Shown: positions 1 to 22,982, counted from the stretch's first letter. The stretch: 24,000 bases of DNA from Alteromonadaceae bacterium 2753L.S.0a.02 (GCA_007827375.1 VISH01000002.1:1366045-1390044), one strand, 5' to 3'. Notes: generated by a model not told the origin, from the sequence alone. Numbers and translations are program-made.

Positions 1-885
1 GCCATTGATTTTCTAAAACATGTTAACGAACGAGTTTATAAGAATTTTCCAGATGCAATGATGGTTGCTGAGGAATCGACTGCATGGCCCGGGGTTTCCA
101 AGCCCACACATTTCGGTGGCCTGGGCTTTGGGTTCAAGTGGAATATGGGGTGGATGAATGACAGTTTGGAATACATTTCTAAAGAGCCGATTCATCGTCA
201 GTATCATCACCACGACATGACTTTTAGCTTGTATTACGCTTTCAGTGAAAATTTTATTTTACCGTTGAGTCATGATGAAGTTGTCCATGGGAAACGCTCA
301 ATCTTGGGGAGGATGCCCGGTGACAGCTGGCAGCAGTTTGCAAACTTGCGTGCTTATTATTCGTTTATGTGGACTCACCCAGGTAAGAAACTCCTCTTCA
401 TGGGAAGCGAATTTGCACAAGGCGCTGAATGGAATCACAACAACAGCCTCGATTGGCATCAACTGGAAATTGATGAGCATGCCAGCGTACAGCGTCTTAT
501 TACAGATTTAAATAAAGTATATGTAGCCACTCCGGCGCTATATGAATTAGACAGTGAGGGTTCCGGTTTCGAGTGGGTGGAGGCAGATGATCGACACAAC
601 TCGGTTTTTGTTTTTTACCGCAAGGCAAACGATGGCAAATCCAAAGTTCTCGTTGTATGTAACTTTACACCGGTAGTGCGTGAGTCGTATCGCGTGGGAG
701 TGAATGATCCGGGTGTATACACAGAAATATTGAATACTGATGATTCCCGTTACGGGGGTGGCAATATCGGCAATAAAAAGCCGATCGAATCCCAAGCCAA
801 AGACTGGCACTTTCGAGAGCATTCTATCGAAGTGACGATTCCACCTCTGGCAACCTTGATTTTTTCGTGCCAGGAATCTGAGTGA
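1..885 (+). CDS. glgB: 1,4-alpha-glucan (glycogen) branching enzyme, C-terminal 294 codons; 5' end lies upstream of the window
   Basis: Frame 1 is open from base 1 ([33 protein letters not shown]...), so the ATG at 58 is internal. GH13 branching-enzyme signatures [12 protein letters not shown] and [12 protein letters not shown] are present. The gene is followed by glgX-glgP-glgC-glgA. Confidence 0.95.
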
Positions 886-966
886 GCCCTATTGAAAATC
901 AGCATATTGCCCCTGAATTTGTCAGCACCAACGGCATGTTGCGACTAACGAAATTTGAGATAAGCA

Positions 967-3168
967 GTGAAAGTGGTTTTTAAAAATAAGCGTAATTTCA
1001 CTACAAAAGAGGGTAAGGCCTATCCCTTAGGTGCGACTGTGCTCGATAATGGAGTGAACTTCGCGCTGTTCTCAGGCAATGCAACGCGTGTCGATTTGTG
1101 TTTGTTTGATGAGGAAGATATTGAAGTTGCTCGGTTAAATTTAAAGGGACCGACAGAACAGGTATGGCATCTAATGGTTGAAGGTCTTGGCGCTGGCGCT
1201 AAATACGCGTATCGCGTGCATGGTGCTTTTGAGCCGGAAAACGGGCATCGCTTCAACGCAAAAAAACTGCTCCTCGATCCTTACGCCCGTAAGTTATCGG
1301 TTCCATTCGAATGGTCCAATAGTTTATACGCTTATGAATTGGAAAACGCCAAGCTCGATTTAAACGCGAGTAAGTCCGATAGCGCCGCTTCTCTACCTAA
1401 GTGTGTCGTCGTAGATGAGCGTAGCCGCGCCCAATCTGGGGAGCAGGGTCGTCCCCATAAGCCGAGAGTAGCCTGGTGTGATACTGTGCTCTACGAGTGC
1501 CATGTTAAGGGTTTTACCAAACTGCATCCGGCAGTGAGTGACGCTCACAAAGGGACTTTCGCTGGCATGATGCATCCAGAGGTTATTGGGTATCTTAAAG
1601 ATCTCGGCGTCACAACTGTAGAGTTATTGCCTGTTCATCAATTTGTATCGGAATATTTTCTAATCGGCAATAGCCTGAGTAATTATTGGGGTTACAACAC
1701 GCTCTGTTTCTTTGCTGTGCACCCAAGTTATTTAAGTCAGGGCGACATCAGTGAGTTTCGCGAAATGGTGGATGCCTATCACGAGGCCGGGCTCGAAGTT
1801 GTTTTAGATGTTGTTTATAACCATACAGCTGAGGGCAATCAGCTTGGCCCCACCTTGAGTTTGCGGGGTATAGACAACATTTCTTATTACTCGCTGCAGG
1901 CTCACGACAAGCGTTACTACGTTAATGATACTGGTTGTGGCAACACTTTAAATTTAAAACACCCTCGGGTTTTGCAGTTGGTTATGGATAGCCTGCGCTA
2001 TTGGTACTGTGATGTGGGGGTTGATGGTTTCCGATTTGATCTGGCAACCGTTTTGGGGCGTGAATCCTATGGGTTTGATTCTGGAGCAGGTTTCCTCGAT
2101 GCAGTGAGGCAAGATCCACACCTCGCAGGCTGTAAGCTAATTGCAGAACCATGGGACATCGGGCCTGGGGGGTATCAGCTGGGCAATTTTCCCAGTGGCT
2201 GGAGTGAGTGGAACGACCGCTATCGTGACACTTGCCGGCGCTACTGGCGCGGAGATCGCGGTATCGTTCCCGAGTTCGCCCGTCGTATTCACGGCAGCTC
2301 CGATTTTTTTGAATATTCCGGAAGAGGTCCGGCCGCCAGCATAAATTTTATCACCAGTCACGATGGCTTTACGCTCCACGATTTAGTGACCTACAACCAA
2401 AAACATAACGAACTTAACAAAGAGGAAAACCGCGACGGTCACAACGGTAATTTCAGCTATAACTATGGTGAAGAGGGGGAAACCAAAGATCCCTGGCTTT
2501 TGAATTTAAGGTTGCGCCAAAAGCGGAATATGTTGGCGACACTGATTCTTTCACAAGGAACACCGATGATACTCGGCGGCGATGAAATGAATCGTTCGCA
2601 AAAAGGTAACAATAACGCCTATTGCCAGGACAATTCGCTCAATTGGGTGGCGTGGGATAGCATTGATCGTGTTGCTAAAGATCTTCAGGGCTTCGTAAGC
2701 TATGTATTGTCATTAAGACGTAAATATCCACTACTCACGGCCAAACGCTACATTCATCGCCCCGATGAGCCAGATAACGAAGTCAAATGTGTGGTGCGCT
2801 GGGTAAATTCACTGGGTTCCGATATGGCGGAAAGTGAATGGAATAATCAAGACCTTAAAGCTTTTGGATGGATACTGGAGCAATATCCGGTGTTTTGTCG
2901 TATTTTCCCTGACGATGCAGAAAGTGATTCACTGTTTGTAGAGCAGGAAAAAAGCCGTATTTTGATTCTCTTTAATTCTGGCGAAGGGGATTTAGTGTTC
3001 AAAGTTCCCATTGGTACCCCCGATGCAGATGGTATTGAAGCCAATTATTGGGATTGCGTGCTCGACACCTATGAAAGCGATGGAATCCCCAAAACACTGA
3101 TTCAAAAACGGGGTGGCAAGGTGTTGCTCCGGGCTCGCTCGATGCAAATGTTGATCGCGAAATTTTAG
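967..3168 (+). CDS. glgX: glycogen debranching enzyme (GH13 isoamylase-type, GlgX)
   Basis: 733-aa ORF collinear with E. coli GlgX. Conserved GH13 regions are YWGYN, DVVYNHT, GFRFDLA (nucleophile Asp), AEPWD (acid/base Glu), ITSHDGFTL and NNAYCQDN. The GTG start at 967 is the first start in the ORF, so the exact start is uncertain. Confidence 0.93.
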   Translation: MKVVFKNKRNFTTKEGKAYPLGATVLDNGVNFALFSGNATRVDLCLFDEEDIEVARLNLKGPTEQVWHLMVEGLGAGAKYAYRVHGAFEPENGHRFNAKKLLLDPYARKLSVPFEWSNSLYAYELENAKLDLNASKSDSAASLPKCVVVDERSRAQSGEQGRPHKPRVAWCDTVLYECHVKGFTKLHPAVSDAHKGTFAGMMHPEVIGYLKDLGVTTVELLPVHQFVSEYFLIGNSLSNYWGYNTLCFFAVHPSYLSQGDISEFREMVDAYHEAGLEVVLDVVYNHTAEGNQLGPTLSLRGIDNISYYSLQAHDKRYYVNDTGCGNTLNLKHPRVLQLVMDSLRYWYCDVGVDGFRFDLATVLGRESYGFDSGAGFLDAVRQDPHLAGCKLIAEPWDIGPGGYQLGNFPSGWSEWNDRYRDTCRRYWRGDRGIVPEFARRIHGSSDFFEYSGRGPAASINFITSHDGFTLHDLVTYNQKHNELNKEENRDGHNGNFSYNYGEEGETKDPWLLNLRLRQKRNMLATLILSQGTPMILGGDEMNRSQKGNNNAYCQDNSLNWVAWDSIDRVAKDLQGFVSYVLSLRRKYPLLTAKRYIHRPDEPDNEVKCVVRWVNSLGSDMAESEWNNQDLKAFGWILEQYPVFCRIFPDDAESDSLFVEQEKSRILILFNSGEGDLVFKVPIGTPDADGIEANYWDCVLDTYESDGIPKTLIQKRGGKVLLRARSMQMLIAKF

Positions 3169-3208
3169 CAATACGAGATTATTCTCTATAAATCGTGAGG
3201 AAGGTGTT

Positions 3209-5659
3209 ATGGAATCAAAATATATTAAACCTGTTCTCAGTAATGATCACGAAGAAGTCAAAGACGACCTTCATCGGCATTTCAATTTTACCTTAGGGCG
3301 CTTTGATACCGATGATATCAGCGGCTATATGCTGACGGCTTTAGCATTGACTGTGCGTGATCGATTGATGGAGCGGTGGCGTATAACCAAGTCTCACGAA
3401 ACGGGAGCAAAGATTCGCAAAGTCTATTATCTATCGTTGGAGTTTTTGCTGGGGCGTAGTCTTGGCAATGCCATTTTGAATTTGAACATGCAGGATTCTG
3501 TACGGCAGGCGCTGGGTGATTTTAGCTGCGTGCTAGAAAATATCGAAATGGATGAAAAGGACGCGGGCCTGGGCAACGGTGGTCTTGGACGGTTGGCGGC
3601 GTGCTTTATGGATTCCTGTGCAACCCTGGCTTTGCCGGTTATTGGCTATGGGATTCGCTACGAGTACGGCATGTTTCAGCAAAGCTTTGTGGAAGGGCGC
3701 CAAGTGGAACAACCTGATCACTGGCTAATTGCTGGTAACCCCTGGGAAATTGAGCGACCTGGGCATTCCCAGGTGGTGCGTTTTTACGGGCGTTCTGAAT
3801 ATTACACTAATCACTTGGGGCGCAGTTGTGTGCGTTGGATAGACACTCAGAATGTGCTAGCCGTGCCTTACGACATGCCAATTCCAGGCTATAAGAACGA
3901 CAAAGTCAATACCTTGCGTTTGTGGAAAGCTGCAGCAACAGAGGAATTTAATCTTCAGGAATTCAACGAAGGTGATTATGCTGACGCTGTGGCGCAAAAA
4001 AATCTCGCTGAGCAAATTACCATGGTGCTCTATCCCAATGATGCCAGTGAGAACGGTAAGGAATTACGTTTACGACAGCAATATTTCTTGGCGTCTGCCA
4101 GTTTGCAGGATGTGATAGCAGATTGGATAAAAGAACACGGATCAGATCTTAGTGATTTCGCCAAATACAACTGCTTCCAACTAAATGATACTCACCCCAC
4201 TTTAGCGGTCGCGGAACTTATGCGATTGCTGGTCGATGTGCATGGTCTCGAATGGGATGACGCTTGGCAAATTACCTGCGACACCATGGCGTACACCAAT
4301 CATACGTTGTTGCCTGAAGCCTTGGAGCGTTGGTCGGTCCACTTAATGGGGGAATTGTTACCTCGCCTGTTGGATATCATCTATGAAATCAATGCGCGTT
4401 TTCTCGCAGTGGTCGCTCACAAATGGCCTGGTGATGTCGCTCGGCAGCAGCGCATGTCTCTTATCGAAGAAGGAGAGCATCCCCAGGTGCGCATGGCTTA
4501 TCTTGCCATCGTGGGAAGTTTTTCTGTAAATGGTGTGGCCGAGCTGCATTCTAGACTGTTAACAACGGGATTATTTAGAGATTTTTATGAACTGTGGCCA
4601 GAAAAATTTAACAATAAAACGAACGGTGTGACTCCACGACGCTGGTTGGCACACTGTAACCGTGGCTTGGGTGATTTACTTACAGAAATTATTGGCGGAG
4701 AGTGGAAAACGAATCTTGCACTCGTCGAAAAACTAACACCATATGCGGATGATCCAGAATTTCAAGCTCGCTGGGAGCAGGTAAAACAAAATAACAAAGA
4801 GCGCTTACGCGAACGCGTCGTGCAAAAATGTGGTGTGGATTTCGATCCGCAAAGTTTGTTTGATGTTCAGGTTAAACGAATACACGAATATAAACGTCAA
4901 CTCCTTAATATTCTGCACGTGATCCACCTCTACGATCGAATAACACGTGGTGACACAGTTGGTATGGTGCCTCGTTCGGTATTGCTTGGTGGTAAAGCCG
5001 CACCTGGTTATGCATTGGCGAAGCTTATTATTAAGCTGGCGAACAATGTTGCCAAAGTTATTAATTCTGATAAGGCCGTAACTCCATGGCTAAAAATGGC
5101 CTTCCTGCCAAATTATCGGGTTAAATCCATGGAGACCATTTGCCCCGCTGCCGATCTTTCTGAGCAAATTTCTACAGCGGGAAAAGAGGCTTCTGGCACG
5201 GGTAACATGAAATTCATGATGAACGGTGCCCTAACAATTGGGACCTACGACGGCGCTAATATTGAAATATTGGATGCAGTTGGGGAGGAGCACTTCTTTC
5301 TTTTTGGCTTACGTGTTGAGGATATTCCAGAATTCAGGCTCCATAATGATCCTAACCACATCATTGAAAAAGATGAGGATTTAAAGAGAGTAATGCGTTT
5401 AATTGAATGCGGTCATTTTAGCATGTTCGAACCTGGAATATTCGAACCGATTATTCGTTCGATTCGTAACCCCATGGACCCGTGGATGGTCGCCGCCGAT
5501 TTTAGAAGTTACGTTGATGCGCAAAAGCAAGTTGCTGAAGCCTATACCAATCGCAGCAGTTGGTTGCGTTCCAGTATTTTGAATACCGCCGCCAGTGGGT
5601 ACTTTTCCAGCGATAGAACCATCTCTGACTACGCCCGCGAAATTTGGAAATTAAAATAA
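3209..5659 (+). CDS. glgP: glycogen/maltodextrin phosphorylase (GT35)
   Basis: 816-aa ORF. It carries the PLP-lysine motif EASGTGNMKFMMNGALTIGTYDGANIE and the N-terminal LGNGGLGRLAACFMDS motif. A strong SD GAGGAAGG (3197-3204) lies 4 nt before the ATG. Confidence 0.96.
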   Translation: MESKYIKPVLSNDHEEVKDDLHRHFNFTLGRFDTDDISGYMLTALALTVRDRLMERWRITKSHETGAKIRKVYYLSLEFLLGRSLGNAILNLNMQDSVRQALGDFSCVLENIEMDEKDAGLGNGGLGRLAACFMDSCATLALPVIGYGIRYEYGMFQQSFVEGRQVEQPDHWLIAGNPWEIERPGHSQVVRFYGRSEYYTNHLGRSCVRWIDTQNVLAVPYDMPIPGYKNDKVNTLRLWKAAATEEFNLQEFNEGDYADAVAQKNLAEQITMVLYPNDASENGKELRLRQQYFLASASLQDVIADWIKEHGSDLSDFAKYNCFQLNDTHPTLAVAELMRLLVDVHGLEWDDAWQITCDTMAYTNHTLLPEALERWSVHLMGELLPRLLDIIYEINARFLAVVAHKWPGDVARQQRMSLIEEGEHPQVRMAYLAIVGSFSVNGVAELHSRLLTTGLFRDFYELWPEKFNNKTNGVTPRRWLAHCNRGLGDLLTEIIGGEWKTNLALVEKLTPYADDPEFQARWEQVKQNNKERLRERVVQKCGVDFDPQSLFDVQVKRIHEYKRQLLNILHVIHLYDRITRGDTVGMVPRSVLLGGKAAPGYALAKLIIKLANNVAKVINSDKAVTPWLKMAFLPNYRVKSMETICPAADLSEQISTAGKEASGTGNMKFMMNGALTIGTYDGANIEILDAVGEEHFFLFGLRVEDIPEFRLHNDPNHIIEKDEDLKRVMRLIECGHFSMFEPGIFEPIIRSIRNPMDPWMVAADFRSYVDAQKQVAEAYTNRSSWLRSSILNTAASGYFSSDRTISDYAREIWKLK

Positions 5660-5741
5660 ATATTAAACCTACTAGTTAGATGAATACCAGCGCAGCTAAG
5701 TTGATTAGAGGTTCCCTAACTAACACTATTGGAGGAAGCCG

Positions 5742-7004
5742 ATGTTAGACCCGAACTCCCGTTATGTAAGTCGTCTCACCCGCGACACAATGGCACTGAT
5801 TCTCGCCGGTGGTCGTGGCAGCCGCTTGCATGAACTCACGGATTGGCGCGCGAAACCAGCGCTTCATTTTGGAGGTAAATTTCGTATTATCGATTTTCCT
5901 CTGTCGAATTGTGTTAACTCAGGGATAAGGCGCATAGGAGTGCTCACTCAGTACAAAGCGCATTCGCTTATTCGGCACTTGGTGCGTGGCTGGAGTCACT
6001 TTAAAAAGGAACTCGGAGAATATGTTGAGATTCTGCCCGCGTCGCAGCGATATTCTCCCAACTGGTACCAGGGAACTGCGGATGCTATTTACCAGAATCT
6101 CGATATCATTCTGGATGAGGCACCTAAATATGTCATGGTGTTATCAGGGGACCACGTTTATCAAATGGACTATGGGTCAATGCTGGCCTATCACGTTGAA
6201 AGTGGCGCAGACCTAACAGTGTCTTGTATCGAGGTACCCATCGAGGAAGCAGCTGGTGCGTTTGGGGTTATGACGGTTGATAATCAGAATCGCATTTTGC
6301 GCTTTGATGAAAAGCCCAAGAACCCATCTGAATTACCCGATCAGAAAGGCATGACCTTGGCATCAATGGGGAATTATATTTTTAATACTGAATTTCTTTT
6401 TGAACAATTGCGTCAAGACGCCGAAGATCCGGATTCTGAACACGACTTCGGTAAAAATATTATCCCAAAGATTATTAAAAATAGTAACGTTCTGGCTTAT
6501 CGCTTTCGTGATCACGATACTGATCAAGCCTCCTATTGGCGTGATGTAGGTACTTTGGATTCGTTTTGGCAGGCTAATATGGAGCTGGTTGAGCCATCGC
6601 CGGCATTGAATCTCTACAATCACGACTGGCCAATTTGGACTTATCAGACCCATTTGCCACCTGCTAAGTTTGTGTTTAACGACGATGACCGTCGTGGCTA
6701 TGCGGTCGACTCCATGGTATCGGGTGGTTGCGTAATTTCTGGAGGTAAAATAAATAAGTCGCTTCTATTTTCCGATGTACATGTCCATTCTTTCACTGAT
6801 ATAGAGCAATCTGTGATATTACCCGAAGCTGAAATTCATCGTAGCGCGAAAATTAAGCGAGCAATTATTGATAGTGCCTGTAAGATTCCCGAAGGTATGG
6901 TGATCGGCCACGATCATGAGCACGATGCTGCGCGTGGCTTTCGGGTTACAAAAAAAGGTGTTGTGTTGGTAACGCGTGAAATGCTCGGTCAACAGCGCCC
7001 CTAA
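5742..7004 (+). CDS. glgC: glucose-1-phosphate adenylyltransferase (ADP-glucose pyrophosphorylase)
   Basis: 420-aa ORF. N-terminal motif [42 protein letters not shown], a WYQGTADA motif and a C-terminal left-handed beta-helix region. SD GGAGGAAG at 5731-5738. Confidence 0.96.
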
Positions 7005-7079
7005 AGAATTATATGAATCTAAAAATGAAACCCATTCGCTGGGTTTGGCAGATGAAGTTTTTTGTAGTAAGACGTTTCA

Positions 7080-8636
7080 ATGAATAACAATAAAAGAATC
7101 CTAATGGTTGCCGCGGAAAATGATGCGCTTCGTGGCGCGAAGGTTGGCGGCGTGGGCGATGTGTTGCGTGATTTACCTAAAGCCTTGGCTGAGCAGGGGG
7201 CTACATTAGATGTGGTGCTACCGTCCTACGGCTTTCTGGCGCGGCTTCCGGGCGTGGAAATACGCAATGAATTTGATATTGTTTTCTCTGGAAAACGGGA
7301 GCGCGTTAAATTAATGCTCGCCTCCCAATCGCAAGGAGTTTCTAATTGGATTCTGCATCATCCTGCATTTTCGCCACAAGGTGATAAGGTTTACTGTAAC
7401 GATGAGTTTCAACCCTTTGCTACAGACGCTACCAAATTTGCGTTTTTTTGCCTCGCCGTAGCCGAGGCGTTAAAGCAAGGCGTTCTTCCCCGGCCGGACG
7501 TGCTTCACTGTCACGATTGGCACGCGGCCTTTCTGCTTGTTTTAATTCAATTCGCCAGTGAATACGCCGACTTGGCAATGATAAAAACGGTTTTCACAAT
7601 ACACAATTTGGCTATGCAGGGGGTGCGCCCTTTCAAGCATGATGCCTCATCACTCGAAGCCTGGTACCCAACCTTGCATTACAATGGTGTGGAGATTTGT
7701 GATATCGCAAATCCGTTTTGTTTTAATCCAATGCGAGCAGCAATTCGCTTAGCAGACAAAGTTCACACAGTTTCACCAACCTACGCTGAAGAAATTTTAC
7801 GTCCCAGTGATCACAATCTGGGTATTTACGGCGGCGAAGGTCTTGAGGCGGACCTGCGAGCACGGCATGCGACCGGTGATTTAATCGGTATTATCAATGG
7901 CTGCGAGTATCCCAAAGGAGCACGATATGCCGACCCCGCAAAGAAAAAAGTACTCGCCCTTGCGCAGGAGAGCCTGGCGCAGTGGGCAAGTAAAACGCGA
8001 CAATTGCTGAGCGCACATTTCGTTGCCGAAAAGCGCCTACAACATTGGGCGCTTAAAAAGACGCGGGGTTTAACGCTTACCTTTGTTGGGCGGTTGACAG
8101 AGCAAAAGGTCAGGTTATTCGAAACGCCGGTTGCAAATGGTGGATCGGCGTTACAGACGATATTAGATTTGTTGGGTGAGCACGGACAGATCATATTCTT
8201 GGGAAGCGGTGACGCTTATTACGAAGATTTCCTGGTGGAGCTGAGCGGCAACAATGAGAATTTTATTTTTTTAAACGGCTATGCTCAGGAATTATCGCTT
8301 TTACTGTACCGCTATGGTGATTTGTTTTTAATGCCGAGTTCTTTTGAGCCCTGTGGGATCAGTCAGATGCTGGCGATGCGTGCCAGTCAGCCTTGTCTGG
8401 TGAATGCAGTAGGGGGCTTACGTGATACTGTGGAGCACAATAAAACCGGTTTTTGCTTCGGTGGAACCAATGTGAATGCGCAAGCTGATGCACTTGTTTC
8501 AGAGTTTTCTCGCATTCTGGCGCTTTATCTGGAAGATCCCAAGCCTCTCAAGGATGTCGCTGCAGCGGCTTCGGAAGTGCGGTTTTTGTGGGATGAAGTT
8601 GCTAAAAACTATTTAGAACAGTTGTATACCGACTAA
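7080..8636 (+). CDS. glgA: glycogen (starch) synthase, GT5 family, long form (518 aa)
   Basis: N-terminal K-x-G-G motif appears as AKVGGVGDV. The GT-B C-terminal motif is PSSFEPCGISQMLAM...GGLRDTV. Last enzyme gene of the glg cluster. There is no clear SD before 7080, and the in-frame ATG at 7104 is an alternative start. Confidence 0.9.
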   Translation: MNNNKRILMVAAENDALRGAKVGGVGDVLRDLPKALAEQGATLDVVLPSYGFLARLPGVEIRNEFDIVFSGKRERVKLMLASQSQGVSNWILHHPAFSPQGDKVYCNDEFQPFATDATKFAFFCLAVAEALKQGVLPRPDVLHCHDWHAAFLLVLIQFASEYADLAMIKTVFTIHNLAMQGVRPFKHDASSLEAWYPTLHYNGVEICDIANPFCFNPMRAAIRLADKVHTVSPTYAEEILRPSDHNLGIYGGEGLEADLRARHATGDLIGIINGCEYPKGARYADPAKKKVLALAQESLAQWASKTRQLLSAHFVAEKRLQHWALKKTRGLTLTFVGRLTEQKVRLFETPVANGGSALQTILDLLGEHGQIIFLGSGDAYYEDFLVELSGNNENFIFLNGYAQELSLLLYRYGDLFLMPSSFEPCGISQMLAMRASQPCLVNAVGGLRDTVEHNKTGFCFGGTNVNAQADALVSEFSRILALYLEDPKPLKDVAAAASEVRFLWDEVAKNYLEQLYTD

Positions 8637-8655
8637 AAATATTATGGGGGTTATA

Positions 8656-9018
8656 ATGCGTAAACTGTTGGTGTGTCTGGTGTTTATAAGTTTGGTGGCA
8701 GGGTGCTCGCAACCAAGTGAGTTGCACAAATCTATGGAAACCATGGGTGATGCGTTCAAAGCTATGCGCAAGGAACCGAGCCTTGAAATGTTTTCCAAAG
8801 AGCTACCTGCTTTTACCGAAGCGTTAAGTATCGCTAAAGCACAAGCTGTGAAACCAGAGCATCAGGAGCGCTTCGATGAGGGCATGAAGGAAATCGAAAC
8901 CGTGCTTACATCATTCCAGATTGCTGTTTCAACTGGTGATTTGGAGCAGGCGACAGATGCGCTGAAAAAATTGGGAGATACCCGTAAAAAGTTTCACGAA
9001 GAGCTTGGCGTTAAATAA
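8656..9018 (+). CDS. cytochrome b562-family four-helix-bundle protein with lipoprotein signal peptide
   Basis: The ORF opens at 8644, but ATG 8656 is preceded by GGGGG at SD distance and gives MRKLLVCLVFISLVAGC, a signal peptide with lipobox VAG|C. The mature part aligns by eye with E. coli CybC: SMETMGDAFKAM vs NMETLNDNLKVI (axial Met) and LKKLGDTRKKFHEE vs LKTTRNAYHQKY (axial His). Confidence 0.7.
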   Translation: MRKLLVCLVFISLVAGCSQPSELHKSMETMGDAFKAMRKEPSLEMFSKELPAFTEALSIAKAQAVKPEHQERFDEGMKEIETVLTSFQIAVSTGDLEQATDALKKLGDTRKKFHEELGVK

Positions 9019-17213: not shown

Positions 17214-17301
17214 AATTATCCTCTTGAAGCGAGTAAAGTGAATACAATTGTGCGATGTAACTTGAAAAAGCTCAATTGTATCGCTCTAGTGGGTGGTTTT
17301 C

Positions 17302-17826
17302 TTAAAAGGTATCTGTATTGGTAAATAATCCGACACGTAAATCCTTTGCGAAATAGATTTCTTTGCCATCGACCGCAACCCTGCCATCTGCTATACCCAT
17401 GATTAGTTTGCGTTCGATGACGCGCTTCAAATGAATATGATAGGTCACTTTGTGGGCAGTGGGCAGAATTTGGCCGGCAAATTTTACTTCTCCAGAACCC
17501 AGCGCTCGGCCGCGCCCGGGATTGCCTTTCCAGGCGAGGAAAAAGCCCACCAGTTGCCACATGGCATCGAGGCCCAAACACCCTGGCATCACTGGGTCGC
17601 CAGGGAAGTGACAGTCGAAGAACCATAGGTCAGGGCTTATATCCAGCTCGGCGATGATCTCACCCTTGCCGTACTCGCCGCCGGTTTGGCTGATGTGGGT
17701 AACGCGATCGAGCATCAGCATATTTGGCACGGGTAGCTGCGCATTGCCGGGGCCGAACATATCTCCGGTGCCACAAGATATGAGTTCGTCACGCGTATAG
17801 GATGAGTTTTGTTCAAATGATTGCAT
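17302..17826 (-). CDS. fabA: 3-hydroxydecanoyl-ACP dehydratase/isomerase
   Basis: The 174-aa product starting at ATG 17826 ([25 protein letters not shown]...) is collinear with E. coli FabA (172 aa). Active-site His is in [14 protein letters not shown] and Asp in [10 protein letters not shown]. The 250-aa ORF in the track is an upstream read-through with no homology. Confidence 0.93.
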
Positions 17827-17956
17827 AAGCAAGAAGTTCCGAACGGGTAATGAGGTTATCCTCAGAAAAAGGCGCCATTCTACCCTGTAGGCTTGGCTTG
17901 TCCAGTATACCTGGGTTAAAAGCTCGAGTAGCCCGTAAAAAAGTGTCACCTGAATG

Positions 17957-17965
17957 TGGTATATT
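17957..17965 (+). promoter_or_regulatory. candidate extended -10 promoter (TGgTATATT) for galU
   Basis: TGn plus TATATT, about 80 nt upstream of the galU ATG. There is no convincing -35. Confidence 0.3.
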
Positions 17966-18043
17966 TCCTGCCTATGTAAATAGGAGGTTCGATAGGATCT
18001 TTTCGCTATTTCCTTTTCATTAGACAACAAGGTGTCGTTCATT

Positions 18044-18877
18044 ATGATCAGCAAGTGTTTATTCCCGGTAGCCGGTTATGGAACCCGGTTTTTACCAGCC
18101 ACAAAATCAATGCCGAAAGAAATGTTGCCCGTCGTAAACAAGCCTTTGGTGCAATATGGTGTTGAAGAGGCTCTCCAGGCGGGGTTACACGAAATAGGCT
18201 TCGTTACCGGTCGAGGAAAGCGAGCTATCGCCGATCACTTCGACGTGAGTTATGAGTTGGAGCACCAAATCGCCGGTACTAGTAAAGAGCAATATCTCAC
18301 ATCTATACGTGACGTTATTGCGAAGGGTTCATTTTCTTTTACGCGCCAAAGTGAAATGCGCGGCCTGGGGGATGCGATTCTGAATGGCCGCCGCCTCATT
18401 GGCAATCAGCCTTTTGGTGTTGTGCTTTCTGATGACCTGTGTGTTGCCGACGAAGACGGCGAAGGCGTGCTCGCGCAAATGGTGAAACTCTTCAAGCAAT
18501 TCCGCTGCAGTATTGTAGCTGTGCAAGAAGTGCCTCAAGAGCAAATTAGCGCTTTTGGTGTAATTGCGGGTAGCCCTCTTAAAGAAAATATCTATCAGGT
18601 GAATGAAATGGTTGAAAAACCTGCGCCTGAAGATGCACCCAGTAACTTGGCGATCATTGGCCGTTATATCCTCACGCCGGACATTTTCGAAATTATTGAA
18701 AACACGCCTCCCGGCAAAAACAACGAAATTCAGCTTACCGATGCGCTGATGACGCAAGCGCGCAATGGCTGCGTATTGGCATACAAATTTAAAGGACGTC
18801 GTTTCGATTGCGGTAGTGTTGCGGGCTTCGTGGAAGCCACAAATTTCGTTTACGAAAACGTATACAGTCAAGATTAA
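18044..18877 (+). CDS. galU: UTP-glucose-1-phosphate uridylyltransferase
   Basis: N-terminal motif [33 protein letters not shown]...[18 protein letters not shown], and EIQLTDA. ATG 18044 ([11 protein letters not shown]) is preferred over the GTG at 18032 that opens the ORF. Confidence 0.93.
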
Positions 18878-20352: not shown

Positions 20353-20382
20353 GAAAAAAGCCTGGCGATTGCCAGGTTTTTT
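20353..20382. terminator. bidirectional rho-independent terminator between manB and the DoxX gene
   Basis: A-run 20353-20358, stem CCTGGC (20360-20365) / GCCAGG (20370-20375) with loop GATT, and T-run 20376-20382. It abuts the DoxX stop codon (20382-20384). Confidence 0.85.
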
Positions 20383-20843
20383 TATGTGCGTCGAATATTT
20401 TCCAGGGCAATTGCACCGCTGCCATTTTTCAGTAAGTAAATGAGTACCACTGCCCAGAGTAGGTGGGATGCCCAAGCGCCTGGATAAACAAACACCTGAA
20501 TCACTAAAGTTATTATTATCAGTGACAGCGCACTTACTCGTGTAAATAAACCCAATAGTAGGAACAGAGAAAGGAAAAACTCTGCCCAGGTGGTTATGTA
20601 CGCGGCTGTTTTTGCTGGAATAAACGGGAGTGCATATTCGTATTCAAATAACATTAAAGTCGAATGGTTGACATCCCAAAACATCCATTTCTGACCCATT
20701 ATTGTAGAACCCCCCAGCTTGTTTTGCGCAGATGTCCAGAAAATCATAAATACTGCTACCCGGCTTGCCAATAATAGTAACCATTCAGGTAAGAGGGTAC
20801 CCAATTTTTTTGCATAGACGTCTATGAGGAAGATAAGTTTCAT
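20382..20843 (-). CDS. bufD: DoxX-family integral membrane protein (bufferin-operon BufD-like)
   Basis: 153 aa with about four hydrophobic helices and DoxX-like sequence (RVAVFMIFWTSAQNKL..., WAEFFLSLFLLLGLFTR). Its ATG overlaps the stop of the upstream DUF2063 gene (ATGA at 20840-20843). Confidence 0.75.
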   Translation of the reverse strand: MKLIFLIDVYAKKLGTLLPEWLLLLASRVAVFMIFWTSAQNKLGGSTIMGQKWMFWDVNHSTLMLFEYEYALPFIPAKTAAYITTWAEFFLSLFLLLGLFTRVSALSLIIITLVIQVFVYPGAWASHLLWAVVLIYLLKNGSGAIALENIRRT

Positions 20844-21628
20844 GCGCTCGCGCCGGGGTAAATAGAGACTACTAACTGAGAAGCTATCAGGAAAGCGACC
20901 GCTTCACTTGAATTAAAGGCTTCTTTGTAGTGGTACATAGTATGCGCTAGCGCATCATGCAGTGTTTGACCGTTAAAAAGGCATTCAACAAAAGTAAATA
21001 TAGAGTCGCTCAACCTGTAAGTTTCAATTTTAGCGTCCGGTCGAACCACCAAAATACTCTCAGCTGAATTAACCTCTAACTTTGAGGTCGTATTTTTCTG
21101 TTCAGCATGCGCCAACTCCCACAAGCTAAATATTGCGAATTCTGAGCGCAACAGTTGTTTACTGGGATGGAAAGAAAAGTGCGCGCGCGCGAGATGTTGG
21201 TCAGCTATCAATGCGAAGGCTTCGGGTTTTAAGGGTGTTGCCTCTGCGGCGTGGTATGCGCAATGCCGCGCCCAATCCAAACGCGCTAAATCGCTCAAAT
21301 AAGGGAGTTTCTGAACCGGTTCAAAGGATGCAATAAAACGTGGGAATTCTTCGCCAAGTAAAACCATTGCAGTATGTTTTGGCGGATATTGTTCGATGTA
21401 AACTTTAGTCATCGCGTTAAAGAAATCCTCACCGACCATGTTGGCAACGCTGGTGAAGGTCTCTTTCAGTGCATCAATAAGGCCGTAATACACATTGTTA
21501 CGGTAGATACTGAGGCGTTCTTCCAACTCTTCGCGTGAGTAAGGAACAAGTTCCGTCTCGAGTTCAAAAGGCGCCTGATGGCTGAAAACCATTTTTCTAA
21601 ATGCCCGCTGGATCTCTTTAATGGCCAC
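20840..21628 (-). CDS. bufC: DUF2063-family protein, RiPP maturase partner (BufC-like)
   Basis: 262 aa with DUF2063-type N-terminal signature (LSIYRNNVYYGLIDALKETF...VGEDFF...LPYLSDLARLDWARHCAYHAAE). The GTG start is 4 nt after the stop of the DUF692 gene. Confidence 0.75.
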   Translation of the reverse strand: MAIKEIQRAFRKMVFSHQAPFELETELVPYSREELEERLSIYRNNVYYGLIDALKETFTSVANMVGEDFFNAMTKVYIEQYPPKHTAMVLLGEEFPRFIASFEPVQKLPYLSDLARLDWARHCAYHAAEATPLKPEAFALIADQHLARAHFSFHPSKQLLRSEFAIFSLWELAHAEQKNTTSKLEVNSAESILVVRPDAKIETYRLSDSIFTFVECLFNGQTLHDALAHTMYHYKEAFNSSEAVAFLIASQLVVSIYPGASA

Positions 21629-21632
21629 GACC

Positions 21633-22490
21633 TTAACGCAACTCCCTCAGGTATTTTTCAGCTGTTTCGGCTTCATCGAGTAATACTTTTAAGGGAGGGA
21701 TATCGGTATCCCATTCGATCAGCGTTGCTACAGGTTGCATTGTTTTTTGTAAGAAATATTTGAAAAGTTGCCACACATCCTGTTTTACCTTTGAGCCGTG
21801 GTTGTCGATACGTAAAATTTTACCATTGCTTAGGGTTGTTTCACTGTGACCAGCTAGATGGACTTCAACAACGGCGCTGGGATCTATCTGATCGATGTAG
21901 GCGTAGGGATCGAAGCCGTTATTGGTGGCTGAAACAAATATATTATTGATGTCGAGTAGGAGCCCACAATCGGTGTGCTCCACCAGTGCTTTTAAAAATT
22001 CTGTCTCAATATAGTCGTTATTTTTGTATGCGACATAGGTGGATGGATTTTCGACGATGATCGTTCTTTTCAAAAAATCCTGCGTTGCTAGTACATTATC
22101 GCAGGCCAACGCCAAGGTTTCATGAGTGTAGGGAAGTGGCAGAAGATCATTGAAGTAGATGTTATCAACGTGGCTCCAAGAGAGATGTTCTGACACTTGA
22201 TGGGGCTGATAGCGCTCACAAAGCGTCTTCAATCGTTGCAGGTGATCCCTATCAATACCATCAGTGCTGCCGAGTGAGAGCCCAACCCCATGCATGGATA
22301 CCGGGTACAAATTGCGGATGGCTTCCAGGTAGCGATGCTGGGGGCCGCCGTCGCCCATATAGTTTTCAGGATGAATTTCCAAAAAACCAAGATCTGGCTG
22401 GTGTTCAAGAATATCTTGGTAGTGTTGTGCCTTGAGGCCAATGCCAACGCGTTTTGGGAGCTGTAGAGGGAGGATTTGGCTGTTTAGCAT
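21633..22490 (-). CDS. bufB: DUF692 / MNIO (multinuclear non-heme iron oxidase) RiPP maturase (BufB-like; MbnB/TglH/ChrH superfamily)
   Basis: 285 aa. UPF0276/DUF692 TIM-barrel signature: VGIGLKAQHY, FLEIHPENYMGDGGP, VSMHGVGLSLGS, VSEHLSW, VENPSTY, LLDINNIFVSA, EVHLAGH, DNHG. Located immediately downstream of a Cys-rich small precursor gene. Confidence 0.85.
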   Translation of the reverse strand: MLNSQILPLQLPKRVGIGLKAQHYQDILEHQPDLGFLEIHPENYMGDGGPQHRYLEAIRNLYPVSMHGVGLSLGSTDGIDRDHLQRLKTLCERYQPHQVSEHLSWSHVDNIYFNDLLPLPYTHETLALACDNVLATQDFLKRTIIVENPSTYVAYKNNDYIETEFLKALVEHTDCGLLLDINNIFVSATNNGFDPYAYIDQIDPSAVVEVHLAGHSETTLSNGKILRIDNHGSKVKQDVWQLFKYFLQKTMQPVATLIEWDTDIPPLKVLLDEAETAEKYLRELR

Positions 22491-22534
22491 GAAAAAATAG
22501 CCCGCCAGCTAGCGAGCTAGGTCGGTACACTGAT

Positions 22535-22813
22535 TCATTTGTCGGTTTTAGGTTCTAGGCTGCCACCGATAATTGCTTCGCACTTACCGTTAGGTACATA
22601 AATCCACGCATCGCCAATGCCATCTTTTTTAGCTTGCCCTGCACAGCTAGTGCCCTGGCTTTTGATGGCGCAGTCATTCTTGCCAGCTTTAACGATGCCG
22701 TAACATTTTTCCATGGTGGGTTTAGCGGCGTGAGCAATAGTCGTCGAAGATACCATGGCAACCCCGGCGGCGATTGCACTGGAAATGGCGAGATTTTTTG
22801 ACAAATTTTTCAT
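22535..22813 (-). CDS. bufA: DUF2282-family secreted 4-Cys peptide, predicted bufferin-type RiPP precursor (BufA1-like)
   Basis: 92 aa. The Sec signal peptide MKNLSKNLAISSAIAAGVAMVSSTTIAHA|AKP is followed by the DUF2282 pattern EKCYG-x-KAGKNDCA-x7-SCAGQ...W-x-YVP-x-GKCE (Cys37, 48, 57, 78). SD TAGGAG at 22820-22825. Confidence 0.85.
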   Translation of the reverse strand: MKNLSKNLAISSAIAAGVAMVSSTTIAHAAKPTMEKCYGIVKAGKNDCAIKSQGTSCAGQAKKDGIGDAWIYVPNGKCEAIIGGSLEPKTDK

Positions 22814-22847
22814 TGAATACTCCTAAGAGTTCGTGGCTCCATTGAGG

Positions 22848-22890
22848 GAGCGAATTATTAATTGGGGGTTGAGCGAACGCTCGTGAGCGA
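22848..22890 (-). promoter_or_regulatory. candidate operator/promoter region of the buf-like operon
   Basis: Overlapping dyads GAGCG-AA-CGCTC-GT-GAGCG (22871-22889). GAGCGA occurs three times (22848-53, 22871-76, 22885-90). A -10-like AATAAT (minus strand, 22859..22854) lies about 41 nt upstream of the ATG and has no good -35. Confidence 0.3.
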
Positions 22891-22951
22891 TTCTTTTCAC
22901 AGTTGGAAATTGAGACTAAGGCAAACGGCGCTAATTGCCAAAGAGATTTTT

Positions 22952-22982
22952 AAAAAAAGCGCGACCCTAGTCACGCTTTTTT
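22952..22982 (-). terminator. rho-independent terminator after pgi
   Basis: Stem AGCGCGAC (22958-22965) / GTCACGCT (22970-22977) with one mismatch and loop CCTA. It is flanked by A7 and T6 runs, and starts 18 nt downstream of the pgi stop. Confidence 0.7.

Follow-up and report, generated by a model that had tools for sequence, protein, structure and literature searches.

A predicted Buf1-type bufferin operon held at a conserved chromosomal position in a shipworm gill symbiont

The description of the bufferin family dates from 2024 and its mapping from 2025-2026, and bufferins, oxazolin and their kin are now grouped as captophorins (PMC13097082; PMC12538549), of which RefSeq holds more than 20,000 clusters (PMC13097082). 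In Caulobacter vibrioides, BufB (two Fe per molecule) and BufC are both needed, and together suffice, to convert the second and third cysteines of the precursor, CysII and CysIII, into 5-thiooxazoles; modification works without the signal peptide, export is through Sec, and a disulfide links CysI to CysIV (PMC11626156). Mature Buf1 binds one copper through 2N/2S, with a KD near 6e-15 M for Cu(II) and near 7e-20 M for Cu(I), and it improves growth under copper stress, the DoxX protein being needed for neither the modification nor the phenotype (PMC11626156). The 5-thiooxazole assignment has been confirmed independently (10.64898/2025.12.15.693703; PMC13097082). Here we analyse a stretch of 24,000 nucleotides, called the window throughout, from Alteromonadaceae bacterium 2753L.S.0a.02 (GCA_007827375.1 VISH01000002.1:1366045-1390044), and within it a four-gene operon, bufABCD, at positions 20382-22813. 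Strain 2753L belongs to the cellulolytic Cellvibrionaceae and lives as an intracellular symbiont in the gills of two shipworms, Bactronophorus thoracites and Dicyathifer mannii (PMC7329324).

We consider it highly probable, at roughly 0.9, that this locus is a complete and intact Buf1-type bufferin (captophorin) operon, and we see nothing in the sequence that would contradict this. The case is built on gene content, order and coupling, on family memberships, on conserved cysteines and iron-site residues, on the fold of the partner protein, and on synteny together with signs of purifying selection. The operon consists of four minus-strand open reading frames (ORFs) in the order bufA-bufB-bufC-bufD (22813-22535, 22490-21633, 21628-20840 and 20843-20382), with 44 nt between bufA and bufB, 4 nt between bufB and bufC, and a 4-nt overlap reading ATGA between bufC and bufD. 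An earlier note on this DNA, made from the sequence alone, had described four tightly packed minus-strand genes with just this spacing, and both the ORF listing and the sequence agree with it exactly. Its description of the first product as a secreted 92-aa peptide with four cysteines also holds, the peptide having four Cys and a signal-peptide layout that ends in AHA/A. The hidden Markov model searches against Pfam and NCBIfam that it proposed recovered every predicted family (DUF2282, multinuclear non-haem iron oxidase or MNIO, DUF2063 and DoxX) far above the gathering scores, a result that chance would not give. Its assignment of the operon to the bufferin type is supported by a BufB that passes the equivalog cutoff, by four cysteines that align with those of Caulobacter BufA1 and by the kept gene order. 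Its statements on the literature were accurate: Caulobacter bufferins carry 5-thiooxazoles, on the central cysteines, and the gig operons were formerly of unknown function (PMC11626156). All four products are identical to the GenBank proteins of strain 2753L, TVZ38282.1 (BufA) to TVZ38279.1 (BufD).

The subtype can be read most directly from the maturase. The bufB gene (21633-22490, minus strand, ATG start) encodes a 285-aa MNIO (formerly DUF692) predicted to form the thiooxazoles. BufB matches Pfam PF05114 (MbnB_TglH_ChrH, MNIO) with 351.8 bits (2.7e-105) and passes the NCBIfam equivalog NF050167 (MNIO_BufB, "MNIO family bufferin maturase") with 378.5 bits against a cutoff of 310, and it stays below the cutoffs of the other MNIO equivalogs (HvfB, 235.9 against 360; ApyH, 69 against 400; ChrH, 61 against 600; MbnB, 45.5 against 325). 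Because of the NCBIfam and Pfam scores of the operon proteins, we assign the subtype to Buf1 and not to Buf2, oxazolin or methanobactin. Sequence matches in the Protein Data Bank (PDB) were 3BWW (7e-44), TglH and MbnB. A BufB scan of species-representative genomes gave 80 loci, and in an alignment of the window protein with 80 homologues, H67, H102, E147, D180, N183, H211, D229, H231 and E259 were invariant in 81 of 81 sequences; these nine residues fall in motifs that align with 3BWW, TglH and MbnB. We take the metal residues to be distributed over iron sites 1-3, an assignment based on MbnB and on published work on HvfB. Among the invariant residues are the counterparts of N175, D242 and H244 of HvfB site 3, whose mutation abolishes activity (10.64898/2026.07.17.739211). 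Judged from this alignment, the iron-binding residues of BufB are intact.

The precursor gene, bufA (22535-22813, minus strand, ATG start), encodes 92 aa. BufA covers the whole Pfam DUF2282 profile (PF10048; 1-53 of 53) with 85.2 bits (2.9e-24, gathering score 22.4), and its nearest named homologue, in Teredinibacter purpureus, is 81% identical and carries the RefSeq name "BufA1 family periplasmic bufferin-type metallophore". In the NCBIfam search no BufA1 model matched, the one hit being a sub-threshold match to BufA2 (NF050166, 21.8 bits, with the cutoff at 60); for this reason we assign the family through PF10048 and the named homologues. Residues 1-29 (22727-22813) have the n/h/c layout of a Sec-type signal peptide (MKNLSKN, a 17-residue hydrophobic core, then TIAHA/A), as judged from inspection and hydropathy only; this predicted cleavable signal peptide is the only hydrophobic stretch of BufA. 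The core of 63 aa (22535-22726, stop included) has four cysteines, at core positions 8, 19, 28 and 49 (residues 37, 48, 57 and 78), and no EGKCG repeat. Our Caulobacter comparator is a locus (L056) in a metagenome-assembled genome (MAG) of C. vibrioides, whose BufA numbering matches by inspection all the Buf1 residues named in PMC11626156 (T9, C12, Y13, C23, K24, S30, C31, A32, W44-K48 and C52). Window BufA is 52% identical to this BufA1, its four cysteines align with Cys12, Cys23, Cys31 and Cys52, and the EKCYG, NDC, SCAG and AW motifs align as well. The sole difference in the functional region is the loop between CysII and CysIII, with eight residues in the window (CAIKSQGTSC) against seven in Caulobacter (CKAGAGTSC); the longer loop is common to the Teredinibacter clade, and seven residues are found in most loci. 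We considered whether this cysteine spacing marks a new variant and rejected the idea as ordinary family variation, because loops of six (CQTNSNAC), seven and eight residues all occur among DUF2282 proteins, and those of six and other loops of eight are common there.

The two remaining genes complete the set. The bufC gene (20840-21628, minus strand) encodes, from a GTG start, a 262-aa DUF2063 partner (PME type 1) whose N-terminal domain is helical and whose C-terminal domain is similar to the recognition element (RRE) of ribosomally synthesised peptides modified after translation (RiPPs). It matches Pfam DUF2063 with 72.8 bits (2.8e-20), and the GTG start is supported because position 1 of the profile aligns at residue 5; the score against the NCBIfam HvfC equivalog, 27.3 bits, is below the cutoff of 142. 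As PDB sequence searches with BufC and with BufA returned no matches, we searched for BufC by fold. An AlphaFold2 model built from 44 homologues (mean pLDDT 94.1, pTM 0.90) had as its best Foldseek matches in the PDB TglI (8HI7_A, 8HCI_A; TM 0.62) and NGO1945 (3DEE; TMt 0.68), and it also weakly matched the RRE protein TbiB1. TglI is the partner of the MNIO TglH and has been seen in complex with the enzyme; 3DEE is the founding DUF2063 structure, for which the 2009 paper proposed a role in transcriptional regulation (PMC2954202). Since the fold of BufC best matches these two proteins, its old label of DNA-binding regulator is superseded. The last gene, bufD (20382-20843, minus strand), encodes a 153-aa DoxX-family integral membrane protein with hydrophobic segments in the hydropathy profile; its ATG overlaps the bufC stop, so that the two are translationally coupled. 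BufD matches Pfam DoxX with 50.8 bits (2.6e-13, gathering score 23.6) and remains below the cutoff of 80 for NCBIfam HvfX (35.7 bits).

By homology with Caulobacter, we infer the chemistry, export, copper binding and physiological role at this locus. BufA would be synthesised as a 92-aa precursor, in which cytoplasmic BufB, with its iron, and BufC would use O2 to oxidise core Cys19 and Cys28 by four electrons each to 5-thiooxazoles. Sec would export the peptide, signal peptidase would cleave it after AHA (residue 29), and the outer core Cys8 and Cys49 would form a disulfide. The net change would be -10 Da, taking the computed monoisotopic mass of the core from 6541.26 Da, unmodified, to about 6531.18 Da in the predicted mature form. 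The mature product would be a folded periplasmic mini-protein of 63 residues that chelates one Cu(I) or Cu(II) through thiooxazole N/S and buffers excess copper, and the DoxX protein would be a conserved membrane accessory, dispensable for modification as in Caulobacter.

Homologues of bufA, bufB and bufC occur in the same order at 80 of 80 loci, and bufD at 70, being absent or undetected in ten (several at a contig end, several in Thalassospira). The operon sits between pgi and pmm in six Cellvibrionaceae MAGs (L001-L004, L013 and L014), with the pgi side only detected in another (L010). The same position is found in Teredinibacter turnerae T7901, T. purpureus, T. waterburyi, strain Bs31, GCA_000964245.1 and two gill-metagenome contigs nearly identical to the window; the T. 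haidensis locus keeps only the pmm side. Because this placement recurs across Teredinibacter and other Cellvibrionaceae, the buf operon is, as judged from synteny, a vertically inherited core locus of the lineage. The earlier note had taken it for an accessory module, a view that has to be given up: the locus is syntenic at pgi/pmm and its GC content does not stand out, and on both grounds we reject horizontal transfer of an accessory island. Operon genes diverge faster than their neighbours, with identities to relatives of 62-81% for BufA, 50-60% for BufB, 32-44% for BufC and 46-62% for BufD against 81-94% for pgi and 73-79% for pmm. BufC is by far the fastest-evolving of the four products (its nearest non-self homologue is 46% identical) and BufA the most conserved. 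Between the window and a gill-metagenome contig we counted 14 synonymous and three non-synonymous codon differences, small numbers that are consistent with purifying selection. In T. turnerae (L081/L082, 7533-8147), an extra gene for an OMP_b-brl beta-barrel protein of 204 aa lies between doxX and pmm, and is found neither in the window nor at the other Teredinibacter loci.

The region upstream of bufA in the relatives of strain 2753L contains a recurrent motif, GAACYW-N16/17-TCnnA, found 86-190 nt before the start codon at 11 Cellvibrionaceae loci (L081-L084, L087, L089, L001-L004 and L014) from T. turnerae, T. purpureus, T. haidensis, T. waterburyi, Bs31 and five Cellvibrionaceae MAGs. Nine of these come from a scan of 85 loci, where all the carriers were Cellvibrionaceae, 0.89 were expected by shuffling and none was found in about 70 loci outside the family; Bs31 and T. 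waterburyi were retrieved later. Instances include GAACTT-16-TCAGA, GAACTT-16-TCTCA and GAACCT-17-TCCAA, in surroundings that are not conserved. The motif is that of the published AlgU/RpoE consensus, GAACTT-N16/17-TCtgA (PMC10651043; PMC4336711), and RpoE-type control of bufA in the clade seems likely. This conserved RpoE/AlgU-like promoter is the only part of our account that goes beyond the published bufferin literature consulted, and it offers a testable hypothesis on the regulation of bufferins in Gammaproteobacteria without SigF/NrsF. In the window, the candidate bufA promoter (22911-22941, minus strand) reads GCAATT-N17-TCTCA or TTGGCA-N17-TAGTCT. In its -10 part (CTTAGTCTCA) it agrees letter for letter with the RpoE/AlgU-like promoter of T. 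purpureus, and its -35 is not GAACTT: in the window and in the matching metagenome contigs it reads GCAATT, or TTGGCA if a sigma-70-like promoter is assumed. A strict RpoE-type motif has no match anywhere in the 24-kb window, and we reject a strict RpoE-type promoter in the window itself, where only the -10 half is kept. Further downstream, a Shine-Dalgarno sequence, AGGAG (22820-22824, minus strand), lies 6 nt before the bufA ATG, and its extended form CAGGAG is kept across the Teredinibacter-clade loci.

Several caveats go with the reading of the locus as a Buf1-type copper buffer. The longer loop between CysII and CysIII could mean that copper-site geometry and metal preference differ from those in Caulobacter. 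The promoter of the relatives looks like an envelope-stress promoter of the RpoE/AlgU type and not like a copper-specific one. No extracytoplasmic function (ECF) sigma factor (Sigma70_r2/r4), NrsF or copper regulator is encoded in the window, whose sole regulator is a LuxR/GerE-type protein about 8 kb from the operon; an adjacent ECF sigma/NrsF pair is an optional feature, which only some of the Buf1 clusters have. Finally, our literature search found no experimental data on this operon in Teredinibacter or strain 2753L and, in agreement with the earlier note, no product, metal specificity or phenotype for the lineage. In one alternative, the same modified peptide is made and its main job is not copper detoxification: it would serve an RpoE/AlgU-type envelope or oxidative-stress response, or act as a periplasmic copper store or chaperone for copper enzymes that are exported, among them the AA10 lytic polysaccharide monooxygenases (LPMOs) of these cellulolytic symbionts. 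The motif upstream of bufA, which 11 Cellvibrionaceae loci have and about 70 others lack, speaks for it, as do the fixed position of the operon beside central carbohydrate genes, the characterised copper-dependent AA10 LPMO of Teredinibacter (PMC6767633) and the related hvf operon of Haemophilus influenzae, which a published study reportedly places in an ECF (RpoE2) hypochlorite-response regulon (PMC7907618). However, the only Buf1 system that has been tested by experiment has a copper-specific phenotype and a copper-selective binding that is femtomolar or tighter (PMC11626156), an affinity of 1e-15 to 1e-20 M suits a sink better than a donor, and the -35 in the window is degenerate, with no strict RpoE-type match. 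We therefore regard this alternative as unlikely. A more elaborate proposal, to which we would give only slim odds, is that cellulolytic Cellvibrionaceae, the shipworm endosymbionts among them, keep a fixed core bufferin operon under an RpoE/AlgU-type envelope-stress promoter and not a copper-specific circuit. The product would then buffer periplasmic copper and, in addition, control how exported cuproenzymes (such as AA10 LPMOs) are supplied with the metal, or control survival in host bacteriocytes, and strain 2753L would have been rewired, its GAAC -35 lost and a sigma-70-like TTGGCA now present.

It could also be asked whether the operon works at all in strain 2753L, or is a decaying or silent remnant without a functional product. 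The strain is an intracellular gill symbiont (PMC7329324), the -35 of an otherwise conserved promoter has been lost in it and in the matching gill-metagenome contigs, and BufC reaches only 32-46% identity with the relatives closest to it. Against this, each of the four ORFs is of full length and covered by its domain from end to end, the nine metal-site residues and four cysteines are intact, the BufC model is confident, the differences from the metagenome contig are mostly synonymous (14 vs 3), a good Shine-Dalgarno sequence and translational coupling are kept, and a sigma-70-like TTGGCA-N17-TAGTCT overlaps the promoter site, so that decay appears very improbable. The oldest view is that of the legacy annotation, under which the four genes encode a small membrane protein, a sugar-phosphate-isomerase-like enzyme, a DNA-binding regulator and an oxidoreductase that have nothing to do with a RiPP. 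It has behind it the GenBank names of TVZ38279-82, the old Pfam texts ('Predicted integral membrane protein', 'Putative DNA-binding domain') and the regulatory proposal for NGO1945 (PMC2954202). For the family it is refuted by published biochemistry, since BufB and BufC have been shown by reconstitution in vivo and in vitro to modify BufA (PMC11626156); here, moreover, the sole hydrophobic stretch of BufA is the predicted cleavable signal peptide, and the fold of BufC is best matched by TglI, which has been seen bound to the MNIO that it partners. We give it next to no chance, and we retain the reading of the locus as an intact Buf1-type bufferin operon.

Several potential RNA elements accompany the operon. 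The spacer between bufA and bufB holds a GC-rich hairpin followed by a T-run (22492-22519, minus strand), terminator-like from 22519 to 22498 and then TTTTTT. A GC-rich hairpin just after the bufA stop is also present in most relatives (L002, L004, L010, L014, L081, L083, L084, L088 and L089), in unrelated sequences. In the window, its fold energy of -16.3 kcal/mol is not significant against shuffles (z = -1.49), and the region has three terminator-like matches versus 3.2 in shuffled sequence. We therefore reject it as a demonstrable attenuator, its stability not exceeding that of shuffled sequence and its recurrence permitting a weak inference only. It is possible that the hairpin acts as a partial terminator or as an mRNA-stabilising element that favours precursor over enzymes, which would match the surplus of precursor that is usual in such systems. 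In the 5' untranslated region, a hairpin of 5 bp, GCTCC...GGAGC (22836-22851, minus strand), lies about 20 nt upstream of the bufA Shine-Dalgarno sequence; it has some compensatory changes among seven Teredinibacter-clade sequences and a consensus energy of only -1.14 kcal/mol. An Rfam search found nothing, the best E value being about 0.3. On the upstream side, the terminator of the pgi gene lies at about 22951-22978, according to the sequence and a terminator-pattern search. At the operon end, an intrinsic-terminator-like hairpin (20361-20376, minus strand; CCTGGCAATCGCCAGG then CTTTTTT) stands back-to-back with the convergent phosphomannomutase gene, pmm. With an A-run and a T-run on either side of this hairpin between doxX and pmm, a bidirectional terminator is possible.

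The remaining genes of the window are housekeeping ones: glycogen genes, cytochrome b562, uvrA, a LuxR-type regulator, an MFS transporter, ssb, fabB, fabA, a nucleotidyltransferase, pmm and pgi. The glycogen row is complete (58-8636, plus strand) and runs from the C-terminus of a branching enzyme through a CBM48/isoamylase-type debrancher, glycogen phosphorylase and ADP-glucose pyrophosphorylase to glycogen synthase; the cytochrome b562 gene (8644-9018) comes after it. The mechanically called FabA ORF (17216-18054, minus strand, TTG start) begins 106 residues ahead of the FabA domain and overlaps a 136-aa ORF without a Pfam match, and the real start of fabA probably lies inside this ORF.

The locus is not new. 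Table S1 of Antoine et al. 2025 (PMC12452194) lists BufA of the window, TVZ38282.1, as "Buf1", and its MNIO, TVZ38281.1, as "MNIO_associated_with_Buf1"; since the window's own accessions already stand in that table, our finding correctly identifies, for a second time, an already catalogued member of a known family. Its main value is one of annotation: a BufA1 bufferin precursor, a BufB MNIO maturase, a BufC partner and a BufD/DoxX protein. The earlier note had expected the genes to be annotated as four hypotheticals, which suits the 2019 GenBank record (from BufA to BufD: putative membrane protein, hypothetical protein, putative DNA-binding protein and putative oxidoreductase) and is outdated for current resources, in which Pfam calls PF10048 'BufA1' and PF09836 'HvfC_N' and RefSeq uses the bufferin-type metallophore name cited above. 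Of modest interest, too, is a peptide operon that keeps a single chromosomal position throughout Teredinibacter. Members of Teredinibacter depend on copper LPMOs and are already known to make copper-binding small molecules, the teredinibactins. In our literature search no paper tied Teredinibacter or shipworm symbionts to MNIO, DUF692 or DUF2282. The text of a survey of biosynthetic clusters in shipworm symbionts contains neither 'RiPP' nor 'copper' (PMC7329324), and because both go unmentioned there, a ribosomal copper-binding peptide would be missing from it.

Among the known systems set beside the window operon is methanobactin. MbnB belongs to the same enzyme superfamily as BufB and its iron-site residues can be aligned, but the MbnBC system makes an oxazolone and a thioamide, uses MbnC as partner on a different precursor, and yields a secreted chalkophore for copper acquisition. 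We rejected membership in the MbnABC group, with MbnB at 45.5 against its cutoff of 325 and a DUF2063 protein as partner in place of MbnC. A second set comprises oxazolin (hvfABC-X of H. influenzae), fontiphorin, gonophorin and bulbicupramide (mmrABC of Microbulbifer, from the same order, Cellvibrionales), in which an MNIO and a DUF2063 partner, with or without DoxX, install 5-thiooxazoles on cysteines of a copper-binding peptide (PMC13097082; PMC12538549). Precursors of the oxazolin group are made of repeated EGKCG units, whereas that of the window is a folded DUF2282 domain with four cysteines; membership in the EGKCG/oxazolin (Hvf) captophorins was rejected, BufA having no EGKCG and BufB scoring 235.9 against 360 with HvfB. 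The BufA2 or Buf_6/12Cys bufferins were rejected in the same way, with 21.8 against 60 bits for NF050166 and four cysteines only. The gig/GIG operons of Cupriavidus metallidurans and Legionella pneumophila share the four-gene architecture and have been named as orthologous (PMC11626156), a likeness that we draw by description only; induction by metal (gold, copper or cadmium) is a feature known for those Cupriavidus and Legionella operons.

Also among the closest described systems is buf1ABCD of C. vibrioides (CCNA_03363-03366). Unlike it, the window operon has no adjacent sigF/nrsF, and it has the loop of eight and not seven residues between the modified cysteines; its BufA core is shorter, at 63 aa versus 68, and ends in IIGGSLEPKTDK instead of the longer KTPKGMGSLTPKA-type tail. 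The host also differs, being a gammaproteobacterial marine endosymbiont. Yet both operons have the same four genes in the same order, with a DUF2282 precursor that carries a Sec signal and four aligned cysteines, an MNIO of the BufB equivalog, a DUF2063/RRE partner and a DoxX protein, and the products of the window are 52% (BufA), 46% (BufB), 30% (BufC) and 41% (BufD) identical to those of the Caulobacter comparator.

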